Origin: a virus
Lineage: Duplodnaviria; Heunggongvirae; Uroviricota; Caudoviricetes
DNA: 5,396 nucleotides
Virus record (IMG/VR): IMGVR_UViG_2778261244_000001
Reading direction: 5' to 3' (one strand)
In this document: positions 27 to 5,396 of the stretch, in pieces
Position numbering within the stretch: position 1 is the stretch's first letter
Layout of the letters: every line of letters starts with the position of its first letter
Notes under the pieces: generated by a model
Told to the model about the DNA's origin: nothing
Database searches by the model: none
What the model saw: only the letters and a program-made list of their open reading frames with translations
Program-made: the position numbers and the translations under genes

Positions 27-1385
27 TCACTTATTTAAGTGATACTGGTTGTCTGGAGATTCAGGGGGCCAGTCTACCGTGTATGTGCCATTTTTTCGGG
101 CAAAATATTCTTCTTTTGTGATTTCAGTGGCGCCAGCAGCCAGTGCCTTATCCAGACCAGAGAGTTTGTTTGCGCGACCGTATTTTTCTCCGTCCTTATC
201 TGCGAAGAGGAAATAGAACGGCCCCTCACGCTCTACAGATGGTTCAGCTTCCGGCGCGGTTTCATTTTTTGGGATATCAGATACCTCAGTTTCCACTGCA
301 TCAGTTTGTGTTTCTGATGACTGGAGAACATCAACAGTGCCCAGGTCTGTTTCTTCATTCTCAAACACGCCCTTTGTCGTCAGGTATTCGCAGATATATT
401 TGTTCAGTGCTACGGGATCTTTGTGAATGTCGATCGGACGCTCACGGACAAGGCCAAAAATAGTTTGGCGGTCGTAGCGAAGGGCATCAGGCTGTTTGCG
501 CATTGATGCCGAGATACGCTTCCAGTCTTCGCGGTCGTTGTCGATAACTTCTTTTTTTGCCCAGCGATGGATGCTGCCGTCAATGTTTCCGGCATCCACA
601 TCACTAGGCCAGAGAGCGTAGGCCAGTTCGTCATCCAGTGTTTTCCATGTCTGCTTGTATTCGCGATGAATGGCAGCAATGACCGGGCTGATTTTTCCTG
701 TTGAATTTTCAGTGTACTGTTGATTGGCTCTGGCGCGGGCGAGATCAACAACAGACGTGTATTTTCCGGTTTCCTTGCGTTCACCTTCGCGACGTTTTTT
801 CCAGATGCGCATCTCTGCCTGAATTTCGGGCCATTTAGCACCAGGAATACATTTATGCTTAACCCACCCAATGGCGTGCAACTTAAGCTCCGGATACATG
901 GCGTTAACTTCTGGCATTTTCATCAACGCTTCAACGATATGTCCGTCGAATGTTGCCATGTCTTCCTGCAACAATTCCTGTGCGCTAATAACCATATCAA
1001 CGGTGATGTTTTCACATGTGTCGAACTTAACCATGACAGCGTTCTGTACTTCAGGGGCCAGCTTGTCAAAAGTGACGTTCATCGGATCGGATTCAGTCTC
1101 AACCGGGACAAAAGAAGCAGACTCCTCATCCCAGCGGTTTTCCTGCATATATTCAGCATCCCATGAATCGAGGGCAGGGCGGGGTATGCCAGGTTTATCC
1201 TCGCAGACAATAAATTTATAAGCGCAGTCCTGAGCAGCCGGATAATGTTCCAGGAATTGCCAGTGAAATTTTGCTCGAGCACGGCGTTCGTCGCCAGCTT
1301 CAATGGCTGTGGCTACAGCCACAGCGCCTTCTTCCCTTGTTGCCAGTTCGTCAGGAATAGCGGCGCAAATAAAGACTTTACTCAT
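27..1385 (-). CDS. Hypothetical protein, 452 aa, strongly acidic C-terminal third; family not recognised
   Basis: Long uninterrupted ORF (track 27..1421, TTG at 1419-1421). Preferred start is ATG at 1383-1385 (MSKVFICAAIP...), preceded in mRNA sense by GAGG about 9 nt upstream. Stop TGA at 27-29. No ATPase, nuclease or methyltransferase motif recognised by eye. Confidence 0.8.
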   Translation of the reverse strand: MSKVFICAAIPDELATREEGAVAVATAIEAGDERRARAKFHWQFLEHYPAAQDCAYKFIVCEDKPGIPRPALDSWDAEYMQENRWDEESASFVPVETESDPMNVTFDKLAPEVQNAVMVKFDTCENITVDMVISAQELLQEDMATFDGHIVEALMKMPEVNAMYPELKLHAIGWVKHKCIPGAKWPEIQAEMRIWKKRREGERKETGKYTSVVDLARARANQQYTENSTGKISPVIAAIHREYKQTWKTLDDELAYALWPSDVDAGNIDGSIHRWAKKEVIDNDREDWKRISASMRKQPDALRYDRQTIFGLVRERPIDIHKDPVALNKYICEYLTTKGVFENEETDLGTVDVLQSSETQTDAVETEVSDIPKNETAPEAEPSVEREGPFYFLFADKDGEKYGRANKLSGLDKALAAGATEITKEEYFARKNGTYTVDWPPESPDNQYHLNK

Positions 1386-1477
1386 TTGTTTTAACCTCAT
1401 GACAGATTTAAGGATGAACAAATCCCTGCCATTGCTGGCATATAAGAATGAAACCGGATATTTATTACGGAACTGTT

Positions 1478-1669
1478 TTAAAGACCTGCCGGGATTTCGA
1501 TATTATCCTGGTGAATAACTTTATCGACCGGGTAACAGTTACCGGGAATTTTCTGTTCGGTTGCTGCAGTCATACACTCCTGCATTGTCCTGTGAACACT
1601 GACTGCAATATCAACTGGCTCTCCGGAAACAAGAAAAACTGTCAGAACAAGCACAAATGCTGAATTCAT
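1478..1669 (-). CDS. Small putative secreted/periplasmic protein, 63 aa (MNSAFVLVLTVFLVSG... then polar region with two Cys)
   Basis: ATG at 1667-1669 preceded by AAGGA with 8-nt spacing. Start overlaps the upstream gene's stop as ATGA (translational coupling). N-terminus is a hydrophobic signal-peptide-like stretch. Part of track ORF 1478..1723; earlier starts lack an RBS. Confidence 0.45.
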   Translation of the reverse strand: MNSAFVLVLTVFLVSGEPVDIAVSVHRTMQECMTAATEQKIPGNCYPVDKVIHQDNIEIPAGL

Positions 1670-1854
1670 TGTGCACATCCTTTTGGCATCAGACGTAAAC
1701 GAGCCAGCATTGAAACAATGCATATTTTATTTAATAGCTCCCGTTCTTGTTTTCTCTTGTTAATGGCATCTTCAGTAAATACTGGGTTACTGATAGTGAC
1801 ACCAATTTCAAAACAACCTTCAGACGTATTAACGTTTGGTAATAACGTTTTCAT
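1666..1854 (-). CDS. Small hypothetical protein, 62 aa (MKTLLPNVNTSEGCFEIGV...)
   Basis: ATG at 1852-1854 preceded by GAGGA with 7-nt spacing. Stop TGA overlaps the start of the next gene (ATGA). Charged, protein-like composition; first gene of an apparent three-gene minus-strand operon. Confidence 0.4.
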   Translation of the reverse strand: MKTLLPNVNTSEGCFEIGVTISNPVFTEDAINKRKQERELLNKICIVSMLARLRLMPKGCAQ

Positions 1855-1906
1855 TATCGCGTCCTCAACAATGAATTTTGTGATGCAGTGCCTGGTGCCT
1901 CCAGGT

Positions 1907-1933
1907 GACGTTAACCAGTTAACAATTAACGCC
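1907..1933. promoter_or_regulatory. Cluster of three TTAAC motifs (GTTAAC-N2-GTTAAC-N2-TTAACG) in the divergent intergenic region; candidate operator
   Basis: Directly visible: GTTAAC at 1910-1915 and 1918-1923, ATTAACG at 1925-1931. Lies between the minus-strand operon start (1854) and the plus-strand ORF start (1938). No protein-binding evidence. Confidence 0.2.
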
Positions 1934-1937
1934 GGAT

Positions 1938-2267
1938 ATGTGCTGTGGCAGCCGCATGTTCTGGTTCGATAAGTCTGACGAACGGGCGATATTCAGCGAT
2001 ATCAGAAAAGAAGGATACACATTACGCAATGGGAGACGCTTGATTATCAGCCCTGACATTATCGCAGATTTTCGTGCATTATCATTTGCAGACGCATCTT
2101 TTTCGATGGTTGTATTAGACCCTCCGCATCTTGAGAGTGTTGGTGATAACGCCTGGATGGGAAAGAAATATGGACGGCTGAATAAAGATGCCTGGCGTGA
2201 TGATTCGCGACAGAGATTTAAAGAAGCCTTTCGGGTGTTGAGGCCGCACGGCGTTCTGATTTTTTAA
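1938..2267 (+). pseudogene. DNA (N6-adenine/N4-cytosine-type) methyltransferase-like fragment, 109 codons, DPPH motif; probably truncated
   Basis: Translation contains ...ADASFSMVVLDPPHLESVG... (D-P-P-H at nt 2118-2129), resembling motif IV (hydrophobic run + DPP[YFW]) of amino-methyltransferases, then ...RVLRPHGVLIF. Frame ends at TAA 2265-2267 but stays open for 29 more codons (WNETQIPVSQILAL...) to TAA 2355-2357. Too short for a full enzyme; no motif I (FxGxG) seen. Confidence 0.4.
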
Positions 2268-2426
2268 TGGAATGAAACGCAAATACCGGTAAGCCAGATT
2301 CTGGCACTGACAGACAGAAAACCTGTTATCTGTCAACGAACAGGGAAAAAACGATAAAACCCACTGGATTATTTTTATGAAAGAGGCATCCAGTGAGTAG
2401 ATTCGTAAGGCTACAGATACGTATAT

Positions 2427-2444
2427 CTGAATAATTAAATTCAG
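2427..2444. promoter_or_regulatory. Inverted repeat CTGAAT-N6-ATTCAG in an AT-rich intergenic stretch; candidate operator
   Basis: Perfect 6-bp arms at 2427-2432 and 2439-2444, about 85 bp upstream of the ORF at 2530. No clear sigma70 -35/-10 pair could be assigned. Confidence 0.2.
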
Positions 2445-2500
2445 TTCTGTAAATAAAATTTAATCCTTAACCGGATGGATTTCTGCACCCTCAGAACATC

Positions 2501-2532
2501 AGGAGGCCGCCCGAAAGGGCGGTAGTGAAATG
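2501..2532 (+). promoter_or_regulatory. Structured translation-initiation region: AGGAGG, then a 6-bp all-GC stem with GAAA loop, then ATG
   Basis: AGGAGG 2501-2506; stem CCGCCC 2507-2512 / GGGCGG 2517-2522 with GAAA loop; ATG at 2530. Linear SD-ATG spacing is about 23 nt, but about 7 nt if the hairpin forms. No U-tract follows, so not an intrinsic terminator. Confidence 0.3.
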
Positions 2533-2640
2533 CGAAAGTTCAAAATTATTATTGAAACGGGAATAGCTGGTGGAGATTTTGAGGATGTATTCGAAGTGGA
2601 CGATGACGCAACACCTGAGGAAATTCATGACGGAGCATAA
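2530..2640 (+). CDS. Small acidic ORF, 36 aa (MRKFKIIIETGIAGGDFEDVFEVDDDATPEEIHDGA)
   Basis: ATG 2530, TAA 2638-2640, preceded by the SD-hairpin arrangement. Too short for compositional support; may be a remnant. Confidence 0.3.
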   Translation: MRKFKIIIETGIAGGDFEDVFEVDDDATPEEIHDGA

Positions 2641-2881
2641 GAAATTTTCTTTAACTACTGCAATTACTCATACCACGAAATAAAAGACGATGAGGAAGAA
2701 CAAAGTGGCTGATTTTTGTTCAGCTAAATATAACATCAGTTTTGAAGAGCGGGATGAACTATTAATGGACTATGGTGAGTTACGCGGTGGAAGTGCTGCT
2801 GATGTCGAATCCTAGCGTGATGACTATGAAGCGGGAAAAACTCCGGTCGAAGCATATTGTGATGAGTGGGGCGATGAATGA
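2627..2881 (+). pseudogene. Small ORF interrupted by in-frame TAA (2681-2683) and TAG (2813-2815); reading frame otherwise continuous to TGA
   Basis: ATG 2627 preceded by GAGG with 6-nt spacing. Frame reads MTEHKKFSLTTAITHTTK-TAA-KTMRKNKVADFCSAKYNISFEERDELLMDYGELRGGSAADVES-TAG-RDDYEAGKTPVEAYCDEWGDE-TGA. The last 21 codons have no start codon of their own and end in an ATGA overlap with the next gene. Confidence 0.35.
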
Positions 2882-3165
2882 GCGAGATTAATTATCAGGA
2901 AGGGCATGAAACGGCGGGGCAAGCAAAACCAGTGGCATGGCGATATCGCTACGTGAAAAAAGGCGTTACGGACTTTCAGGGGAAGTAGTGGTCTGGTGAC
3001 TGGAAATATGTACCGAAAAAAGAGGATTGTAACGACAGGCCGAACTATCAAATTCAGGCCTTATTCACTGCCTCACCAGTCCCAGTTACATCAGAAGAAC
3101 TGGTTAAAGCTGTGCACTTTTATGAACAACTAAAACGCGAAAATCCACCAACATCCGGCAACTAG
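2878..3165 (+). pseudogene. Small phage-like ORF interrupted by one in-frame amber codon (TAG 2986-2988); 36 aa + stop + 58 aa in one frame
   Basis: ATG 2878 with purine-rich GGGG 6 nt upstream, and ATGA overlap with the upstream frame. Translation MSEINYQEGHETAGQAKPVAWRYRYVKKGVTDFQGK-TAG-WSGDWKYVPKKEDCNDRPNYQIQALFTASPVPVTSEELVKAVHFYEQLKRENPPTSGN-TAG. The downstream part is protein-like; the antisense ORF looks like junk. Confidence 0.45.
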
Positions 3166-3419
3166 ATTAATGGATTAACTATGTCGGTTAAACGACCAGC
3201 CAACTGAAAAAGCGGAAACCTGATTACAGGTTGCCAGATAAGGCAATGAGCTACCTGGCGCGGAACGGACTGATAAGTATGGGGAATGTTTTACGATGAA
3301 CCTTTAGACTAAAGAGTTTGTAACGCTATGTAAGTGATTTTTTCTGGTTTAGATATTTATATGTCCGGCCAAATTGAGGTGTGTTTAAATGTAATTGCAC
3401 ATTGATTGTAGGAGGAATA

Positions 3420-3599
3420 ATGAAAAACGCATTGCAGTTTTTGTTTGTTGCGTTCTGGTTGTTCGCATCATGTATGCCCATCATCTTCACAGCAAGGTAT
3501 ATGGAAAAAGTTGATGTTTTGATATTAATATTTGGATATATAAATGCCCTTTTTTTAGGGGTGTTCATGGCGGTCATGTGCATTGAATACTGGCGGTAA
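3420..3599 (+). CDS. Small hydrophobic protein, 59 aa, two predicted transmembrane helices
   Basis: Strong RBS AGGAGG (3410-3415) 4 nt before ATG 3420; stop TAA 3597-3599. Two hydrophobic segments (ALQFLFVAFWLFASCMPIIF and VLILIFGYINALFLGVFMAVMCI) separated by a short charged loop (TARYMEKVD). Gene is visibly AT-rich compared with its flanks. Confidence 0.55.
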   Translation: MKNALQFLFVAFWLFASCMPIIFTARYMEKVDVLILIFGYINALFLGVFMAVMCIEYWR

Positions 3600-3829
3600 A
3601 TACAGCGAACTCCATTGGTTTAGTTGGATATTTACTGTGCTGGACAAAAACGGTTTGCGGGGAAATCTTAGTTAAGTAGAATGACTGCGGGTGCTTGAGG
3701 CTATCTGCCTCGGGCATGGACACCAACGGCAGATAGAGAAAAGCCCCAGTTAACATTACGCGTCCTGCAAGACGCTTAACATTAATCTGAGGCCAATTTC
3801 ATGCTAGACACATGTAGGTTAGCCTCTTA

Positions 3830-3845
3830 CGTGCCGAAAGGCACG
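3830..3845. other. Stable hairpin CGTGCC-GAAA-GGCACG (GNRA-type tetraloop), not followed by a T-tract
   Basis: Perfect 6-bp stem with GAAA loop, about 90 bp upstream of the transposase start. Same architecture as the hairpin at 2507-2522. Confidence 0.3.
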
Positions 3846-3904
3846 GAGAAGCAGGCTATTGTTAACACCAAGCTGTAATGTCCCCTTTGAACCATTCTAA
3901 AATG

Positions 3905-3936
3905 TCCCCAGACAATTCTCTGGGGGATTTTTCATG
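3905..3936 (+). promoter_or_regulatory. Hairpin that places the transposase Shine-Dalgarno (GGGGGA) in its 3' arm
   Basis: TCCCCA 3905-3910 pairs with TGGGGG 3921-3926 (5 Watson-Crick pairs plus one G-U), 10-nt loop; ATG at 3934 lies 7 nt after the stem. RBS occlusion is a known way IS elements limit transposase translation. Confidence 0.35.
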
Positions 3937-5247
3937 ATCAAAGAGACTGTTACGATGAGTCATAAGGAACTCCACCGACTTCAGATTATTCAGGAACAAG
4001 CTGCGGCACGCATTGGCATTTCTATTCGGCAGGTTAAACGTCTGGTGCAACGGTATAGAAATGAAGGGCCTTCTGGTCTGGTTTCCCACCGACGTGGAAA
4101 GCGTCCTAATAATTCCTTTTCTACTGAATTCAGAGCAACAGTAATTTCACTCCTCAAAGGCCGTTACGCTGATTTTGGACCTACGTTTGCGTGCGAAAAA
4201 TTGCGCGAGATACACGGTTTATCTTTATCCGTTGAAACTCTCAGAAAGTGGATGATAGAAGTGGGGTTATGGCGTGAACGCCGTCGTAAAATTGCCCGTA
4301 TATATCAACGCCGCATGCGACGACCATCTTACGGTGAACTGATCCAGATTGATGGCTCACCTCATGACTGGTTTGAAAATCGAGGCCCCAGATGTACACT
4401 GATCGTTTTCATTGATGATGCCACCAGTGCGTTGATGGCGTTGCGTTTTGTGCCTGCTGAAACAACCCGGGCTTACATGGAAACCCTCCGGGGTTACCTT
4501 AATGATCATGGCGTACCGCTCGCTCTCTACTCTGATAGACACAGTATATTCAGGGTAAATAACCCAGAGCGGGAAGGTGAGCTGACCCAGTTCACTCGTG
4601 CGATAAAGACACTGGGCATCGAGCCAATCCATGCCAACAGCCCGCAGGCAAAAGGGCGGGTAGAGCGCGCCAATCAGACACTACAGGACAGGCTGGTCAA
4701 AGAAATGCGGCTTCAGAATATCAGTGATATTGAAACAGCAAATGCATGGTTGCCGACCTTTATTGAAGCCTATAACAACCGGTTCGCTACGTCGCCTCGT
4801 ACTACTGATAATGCTCATCTTGATGTGCACCATTCTGAAGAGGAACTGGGTTATATCTTCAGCCTACAGGCGAAGCGCGTTCTGTCTAAAAATCTCACTT
4901 TCCAGTACAAAAGCAGTGCGTTTCAGGTACGCAGTGAGGGCCGGGGATATCGACTTAGGCATTCGGTTGTTACTGTATGCGAGAACTTTGACGGTGAAAT
5001 TAACGTTCTGTATGACGGGAAAGCGCTGGGCTGGGAAAAGTATGTTGATGGCCCGGAGCCTATACCACTGGATGATGAAAAGAGTGTCCATGAACGAGTG
5101 GATAATGCCCGTATTGATTTACGCTCAAAATACTATGTTAAACCTAAAGCTGACCATCCCTGGCTTACGCGCCGAACGCAAAGTCATCAGCAAGTTAAGC
5201 CCCCGAAGTTACCTAAAAAGAAGCCTGATCCCGATAAAAAAGATTGA
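3934..5247 (+). CDS. DDE transposase (rve/integrase-core fold), ISNCY (IS1202-group) / IS481-like, 437 aa
   Basis: Intact 1314-nt ORF. N-terminal helix-turn-helix-like region (AAARIGISIRQVKRLVQRYRNEGPSGLVSHRRGKRP). Candidate catalytic residues in IQIDGSPHDW / VFIDDATS, LALYSDRHSIF, and GRVERANQTLQDRL (the G-x-V-E-R-x-N signature of retroviral-integrase-type transposases). Basic C-terminal tail. The ATG at 3955 (MSHKELHRLQII...) is an alternative start. Confidence 0.9.
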   Translation: MIKETVTMSHKELHRLQIIQEQAAARIGISIRQVKRLVQRYRNEGPSGLVSHRRGKRPNNSFSTEFRATVISLLKGRYADFGPTFACEKLREIHGLSLSVETLRKWMIEVGLWRERRRKIARIYQRRMRRPSYGELIQIDGSPHDWFENRGPRCTLIVFIDDATSALMALRFVPAETTRAYMETLRGYLNDHGVPLALYSDRHSIFRVNNPEREGELTQFTRAIKTLGIEPIHANSPQAKGRVERANQTLQDRLVKEMRLQNISDIETANAWLPTFIEAYNNRFATSPRTTDNAHLDVHHSEEELGYIFSLQAKRVLSKNLTFQYKSSAFQVRSEGRGYRLRHSVVTVCENFDGEINVLYDGKALGWEKYVDGPEPIPLDDEKSVHERVDNARIDLRSKYYVKPKADHPWLTRRTQSHQQVKPPKLPKKKPDPDKKD

Positions 5248-5279
5248 AACCAAGATCGATTCGGTTGAGTGCATTGATC

Positions 5280-5396
5280 CTACCCACGTAATATGGACAC
5301 AGGCCTAAGCGAGGTTCTGGTTTTCAAATTGTTCCGGACTGAGGCCGCCACACCAACTGTGCCGCCGCCACCGATTGTAATCACATTCGATATAAT
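5280..5396 (-). CDS. Possible 3' end of a minus-strand gene entering from the right edge (C-terminal 38 codons, glycine-rich: ...NVITIGGGGTVGVAASVRNNLKTRTSLRPVSILRG)
   Basis: Open frame from the window edge to TAG at 5280-5282; higher GC than the neighbouring DNA. Too short to identify; could be chance. Confidence 0.2.
   Translation of the reverse strand: MISNVITIGGGGTVGVAASVRNNLKTRTSLRPVSILRG

Follow-up and report, generated by a model that had tools for sequence, protein, structure and literature searches.

Very probable pseudogene decay of four small early-region genes in a Qin-type defective prophage of Escherichia coli

Gene content and prophage setting

The DNA considered here, a stretch of 5,396 nucleotides from the IMG/VR virus record IMGVR_UViG_2778261244_000001 (Caudoviricetes) that is called the window throughout, carries four small accessory genes in the early-right operon, with the replication genes on one side and the hok/antiterminator region on the other. 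These are the remnant of a small phage DNA methyltransferase gene, a DUF7167 gene (gene 1), gene 2, and an Ea22-like gene (gene 3), whose coordinates and families are collected in Table 1. Reading frames were established by comparison with eight intact copies: the plasmid-prophage pJS316 (L004), pZ1322 (L003), the phages vB_EcoS-689R5 (L008), 640R1 (L007) and ArgO145 (L009), two chromosomal prophages (L012 and L013) and a contig of a metagenome-assembled genome (MAG; L015). An earlier note, made from the letters of the window alone, had described two coupled genes joined by an ATGA overlap at 2878-2881. The overlap is real and joins the stop of gene 2 to the start of gene 3, while the number of coupled genes has to be raised to three, since the intact copies reveal a further gene upstream whose end is overlapped by gene 2 over 8 bases. 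The same gene order and translational coupling are found in the intact lambdoid early-region cassette of pJS316, vB_EcoS-689R5 and ArgO145, which shares with the window both the ATGGCTGA overlap of genes 1 and 2 and the ATGA overlap of genes 2 and 3 at a DNA identity of 88-93%. Unlike the window, however, these cassettes have sense codons at 2638, 2813 and 2986, their gene 2 begins with ATG, and the C-termini are complete.

Table 1. Coordinates of genes and other features discussed in the text
Feature	Position	Strand	Family or remark
YdfD ORF	1478-1669		coincides with annotated CDS in identical loci
DicB ORF	1666-1854		coincides with annotated CDS in identical loci
Small phage DNA methyltransferase remnant	1938-2400	+	phrog_954; DPPH motif kept
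Gene 1, DUF7167 pseudogene	2530-2712	+	PF23768; phrog_1997; 60 codons
TAA triplet	2681-2683	+	out of frame in DUF7167 CDS (...CAC GAA ATA AAA GAC...); no lesion
Gene 2	2705-2881	+	phrog_519; no Pfam family; 58 codons
Gene 3	2878-3299	+	phrog_660, Ea22-like C-terminal family; intact form 141 aa (P0005)
A6 homopolymer in gene 3	2956-2961	+	frameshift hotspot
YdfW ORF	5098-5247		coincides with annotated CDS in identical loci

Judging from its profile match, gene 1 belongs to DUF7167 by descent, though disrupted: its conceptual product (2530-2709) scores 50 bits against PF23768, for which the cut-off is 24.4, and covers the whole model. The Pfam scan gave a sub-threshold match for the methyltransferase and, apart from that, DUF7167 only, and an NCBIfam scan of the repaired proteins gave no helpful family. 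Between an AGGAGG sequence and the DUF7167 start lies a hairpin (2506-2523) with a 7-bp G+C stem and a GAAA loop (GCCGCCC-GAAA-GGGCGGT), with a folding energy of -16.9 kcal/mol (z = -3.3). It is identical in most homologues, one stem base being changed in L013, and might have a role in RNA stability or processing, or act as an antitermination-type hairpin.

By gene content and order, the window is assigned to a Qin-type cryptic (defective) lambdoid prophage of E. coli. Over positions 77-5396, identity to the chromosomes of the E. coli strains 1303, G4/9 and PigCaeca_2 is 100%, and the window contains the Qin genes for a recE-like exonuclease, dicB, ydfD and ydfW in Qin order. In G4/9, the locus adjoins rspA-rspB, a tyrosine integrase gene and an excisionase gene, and comprises genes for a recE-like exonuclease, ydfD, dicB, ydfW, flxA, ydfV, relBE, hokD and rem. 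The Qin position, beside rspAB and integrase/excisionase genes with relBE-hokD-rem downstream, is thus found in G4/9; the window itself ends short of these genes. With Qin prophages, the window shares the gene set and the neighborhood, and its DNA is identical to that of many RefSeq genomes. The stretch from 1900 to 3300, in which the interrupted genes lie, is matched in 4,508 of 5,426 complete E. coli genomes. The Qin prophage of K-12 MG1655 is not known to carry any of this segment.

This copy differs from other Qin-type copies by a deletion of its own that is common to only a few genomes. At its junction (about 1855-1937), dicB-proximal sequence is fused directly to the methyltransferase gene, with the loss of dicF, ydfABC, dicA, dicC, the replication genes and DUF977, which are present in other Qin-type copies. 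In the same region of a record labelled DH5alpha, the dicA, dicC, ydaT-like and DUF977 genes are still there. Most of the best-matching genomes match only from window position 1935 (query base 36) and therefore do not have the junction.

Several features elsewhere in the window were also recorded. The hok/sok leader is intact at 3689-3860 (Rfam RF01794, 104 bits), and the hok coding sequence is replaced from its ATG (near 3862) by the end of an ISNCY/IS1202-like element (locus 3689-3935), where homologous prophages have an intact hokD-like gene. Positions 3934-5247 form a 437-aa ORF that is a fusion: within it, PGAP annotates 3955-4977 as an ISNCY-family transposase without its C-terminus, and its last 49 codons (5098-5247) are the annotated YdfW. 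At the other end, positions 1-76 are not part of the exonuclease gene of the 100%-identical genomes and seem to resemble IS2 terminal sequence. This suggests an IS insertion in the recE-like gene of the window, like that of the Qin prophage of K-12 (ydfE/IS2). On the plus strand, a 59-codon ORF at 3421-3599 with a strong ribosome-binding site (AGGAGG) is predicted to give a small protein that is very hydrophobic (MKNALQFLFVAFWLFASC...). It is 97-99% conserved in other prophages and has no match in Pfam, PHROG or NCBIfam; RefSeq gives no annotation on this strand, and some phage records give an ORF on the opposite strand.

Premature stops and other lesions

The earlier note had described this region as consecutive genes broken by in-frame stops only, with no frameshifts. 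This description does not survive the comparison with homologues, by which two frameshifts are present, one of the claimed stops is in the frame of no gene, and one of the claimed gene ends is premature. The stop at issue in gene 1 is a single TAA at 2638-2640, which had been overlooked and in place of which all eight intact copies have AAA (Lys). The TAA at 2681, reported as an in-frame stop, does lie in the frame of gene 2, but upstream of the gene 2 start and within the DUF7167 gene; since CACGAAATAAAAGAC is identical in all intact homologues, this triplet is not a mutation. Likewise, the ATG at 2627 from which the interrupted gene had been read is an out-of-frame ATG within DUF7167. RefSeq annotation by PGAP labels the DUF7167 gene a pseudogene with an "internal stop".

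The two TAG codons at 2813-2815 and 2986-2988 were correctly recognized: both are in frame and interrupt real genes, with homologous protein sequence carrying on past the stop. The first is a premature stop in gene 2 where the eight intact copies all have TGG (Trp); this gene has, in addition, lost its ATG, the start being GTG in the window and ATG in homologues. The second lies in gene 3 and corresponds to CAG or CTG in intact gene 3 copies. A further TAG at 3163-3165, formerly taken as the proper end of this gene, corresponds to CAG (Gln) in P0002, P0005 and P0034 and is itself premature. Near 3195-3205, the frame changes and the gene runs on to 3299; a tblastn search with P0005 accordingly follows one frame up to 3204 and another from about 3198 to 3296. 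PGAP labels gene 3 a pseudogene, and this frameshift explains the note "frameshifted; internal stop" that it attaches to 2878-3299.

Gene 3 also varies among copies at its A6 run, which is A7 in pZ1322 and A8 in phage 640R1 and strain JNEC-KY204, and E. coli H1 and Shigella flexneri lack the G next to the run. Variation between A6 and A8 at this site is expected of a frameshift hotspot. In 640R1 and pZ1322, a 57-base deletion between the short similar motifs CCGGCAAC and GCGGAAAC (region 3150-3215) takes out both TAG 3163 and the frameshift. The 104-aa variants P0003 and P0004, which have the junction of this deletion and no TAG 2986, are intact, so the C-terminus of the family is naturally variable.

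The methyltransferase gene, said to follow the same nonsense-only pattern, combines a stop with two lesions of other kinds. Its TAA at 2265-2267 is AAA in the homologue of an Stx2c phage, a +1 insertion of G near 2342-2345 shifts the frame (a tblastn search with the intact protein switches frame at about 2343), and the first 19 or so codons of the full-length homologue are absent, having been lost with the deletion that brings the gene up against the dicB side. PGAP marks this gene as a pseudogene, "frameshifted; internal stop", in strains KMi029 and H1.

The five true stops are thus substitutions, namely AAA>TAA at 2265 and 2638, TGG>TAG at 2813, and CAG>TAG at 2986 and 3163. The check proposed in the earlier note, to see which sense codons homologues carry at the stops, gave AAA, TGG, CAG/CTG, CAG and AAA at 2638, 2813, 2986, 3163 and 2265, respectively; more generally, intact homologues have a sense codon or an open frame at every lesion. 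Beyond nonsense, the tally comprises two small frameshifts, one larger deletion, an IS insertion nearby, and the lost ATG of gene 2. A single mutational signature such as deamination was considered and rejected, the stop-creating changes being a mixture of A>T, G>A and C>T.

Distribution, age and spectrum of the lesions

With its three stops repaired, the sequence from 2500 to 3165 was compared with all complete E. coli genomes. The best match has 3 mismatches (99.6% of 666 bases), 410 complete records match at 99% or more, and no Qin-type allele with fewer stops was seen across these genomes. In a base-by-base comparison of six other Qin-type copies (L001, L002, L005, L010, L011 and the Shigella flexneri copy L014), positions 2638, 2705, 2813, 2986 and 3163 read TAA, GTG, TAG, TAG and TAG in every one, and two of the six share an extra 1-base deletion beside the A6 run. 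When the repaired DUF7167 protein was searched against GTDB species representatives, no intact Qin-type allele was obtained; the matches were Shigella flexneri, with the same stops, and two MAG contigs only, of which L015 has the common intact allele.

The next group of E. coli sequences has an overall identity of about 93%, with 1,189 records in the range of 90-95%. Two of its members, L012 and L013, were examined; both combine intact genes 1 and 2 with a gene 3 that has the same two TAG codons and the same frameshift as the window; TAG 2986 is also present in phage 640R1 and pZ1322. The stops at 2638 and 2813, on the other hand, are confined to the Qin-type allele, with sense codons in all eight more distant copies. 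Since the gene 3 lesions occur where genes 1 and 2 are intact (L012, L013, 640R1 and pZ1322), the lesions differ in age. Those of gene 3 either are older or have spread by recombination, and the stops of genes 1 and 2 are specific to the Qin-type allele. Further disabling lesions are found among the copies, namely the 1-base deletion, the A7 and A8 runs, the 57-base deletion, and the 5' truncation of the methyltransferase gene in the window. The differing phylogenetic distributions of the lesions indicate that these events do not reflect one process.

Whether the share of nonsense changes is unusual depends on the mutation spectrum assumed. A random substitution in these genes has a chance of about 5.3% of creating a stop. 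In E. coli mutation accumulation, the indel:substitution ratio is reportedly 0.1, at which at least five nonsense changes among seven small lesions have a probability of 0.05-0.08. A Vibrio mutation study gives a ratio of 0.16-0.27, at which the probability falls to 0.002-0.02; all these values are binomial and precede correction for the post-hoc selection of the region. Nominally, then, nonsense changes exceed what rates of mutation accumulation would give, and this counts against plain decay. Among translated Salmonella pseudogenes, the nonsense share is about 0.39 (35 vs 55), near the range of 0.35-0.38 (Feng et al. 2022, PMC9122581). The excess is regarded as unremarkable because the region was picked for this very pattern and because the events come from different lineages; a mild bias toward nonsense could nevertheless exist.

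Explanations for the interrupted frames

The region very probably represents ordinary pseudogene decay in the early region of a Qin-type defective prophage. Pseudogenization was one of the options raised in the earlier note, and it is the one that agrees with the sense codons of homologues at every stop, with the further independent lesions, and with the pseudogene labels of PGAP. The four small genes (methyltransferase, DUF7167, gene 2 and the Ea22-like gene 3) would no longer be under selection, and each would have been knocked out by common spontaneous mutations, that is, by stop-creating substitutions and small frameshifting indels. They would then yield no functional product, and the mutations would have been fixed neutrally. 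Compared pairwise with the consensus of intact homologues, genes 1, 2 and 3 of the window give pN/pS values of 0.12, 0.21 and 0.19, respectively, which indicates that most of the 7-11% DNA divergence accrued under purifying selection. Inactivation is recent by comparison with the age and divergence of the allele and has left little time for further decay, which explains why the frames beyond the stops are still protein-like. Since frameshifts and deletions accompany the premature stops, no special decoding is needed to account for them.

The earlier note had also offered recoding in two forms, low-level programmed read-through and a suppressing genetic background. Against programmed read-through stand the absence of the stops from homologues, the lack of a stable RNA structure downstream and the presence of frameshifts, which in gene 3 and the methyltransferase gene would block a read-through product in any case. 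The 60 nt after each stop folded no better than shuffled sequences (z from -0.1 to -1.8), the Rfam scan of the whole window returned nothing in 2500-3300, its sole match being the sok/hok leader, and a promoter and terminator scan of 1850-3950 gave about as many predictions as expected from shuffles, none of them bearing on the stops. No special element (SECIS or similar) follows the stops, and none of them is UGA. That the stops belong to an amber- or ochre-suppressing background, of host or phage, or arose as errors in sequencing or assembly, is extremely improbable. The sole point found for it is that all five are TAA or TAG; TGA, however, is expected in only 27-32% of stops created in this way, and its absence among five is compatible with chance (P = 0.15-0.21). 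Hundreds of complete and independent genomes carry these same alleles; they come from unrelated hosts and countries and include wild and clinical E. coli and Shigella flexneri, with cattle, pigs, humans, food and river water among the sources. ARAGORN found no tRNA gene, and hence no suppressor tRNA, within the window. Sequencing error is excluded, since hundreds of independent assemblies agree exactly.

Unprogrammed leakage of the kind described for "pseudo-pseudogenes" is a different matter: near-cognate tRNAs would decode the UAG codons at a low level and give a trace of full-length gene 2 product. Many Salmonella pseudogenes are translated at a low level, with read-through mostly at UAG and with C enriched at -1 and +4 (Feng et al. 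2022, PMC9122581), and UAG 2813 lies in just such a context (tcC TAG Cgt, with C at both positions). The likeness to the Salmonella cases extends to the origin of in-frame UAG codons by simple substitutions. It is limited by the facts that two of the four genes here are also frameshifted and that two of the stops are UAA. An account of the locus by such leakage seems unlikely, given that the stops are absent from homologues and are followed by no stable structure, that the ATG start of gene 2 is gone as well, that gene 3 and the methyltransferase gene are frameshifted as well, and that there is no sign of selection for such products. UAA, the stop at 2638 and 2265, is moreover an efficient terminator. 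A leak at UAG 2813 is conceivable as a generic property of pseudogenes, not as a designed feature. Selection may instead have acted on the inactivation itself. If genes of the early operon, or genes downstream of them such as hok, did harm to the lysogen, selection would favor premature stops, which both kill the product and cause Rho-dependent polarity that silences the rest of the operon; that Rho silences prophage DNA in E. coli is established, reportedly by Cardinale et al. (2008). The nominal excess of nonsense over frameshifts, the destruction of the neighboring hok coding sequence by an IS insertion, and the fixation of the stops in every Qin-type copy seen are in keeping with this idea. 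It is nonetheless quite improbable, as nothing points to toxicity of any of the four genes, which are intact in many resident prophages, the lesions come from different times and lineages, and vertical inheritance from a single decayed ancestor explains fixation equally well. Also held to be very improbable is a proposal that the stops are non-neutral through Rho silencing of downstream genes and, separately, that a leaky UAG 2813 yields a trace of a functional small protein.

Ordinary pseudogene decay therefore remains the preferred reading, and much of it is already on record: in RefSeq, three of the four genes are labelled pseudogenes in one record or another. The case is of little significance in itself, serving mainly as an example of how ordinary pseudogenes come to look like a recoding signal once the limits of genes are set wrongly. 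A modest remaining point is gene 2, which carries no annotation in the RefSeq Qin records examined and thus adds an unannotated pseudogene to them. The occurrence of one and the same gene 3 pseudogene in a defective prophage and in other prophages and phages would fit exchange between them.
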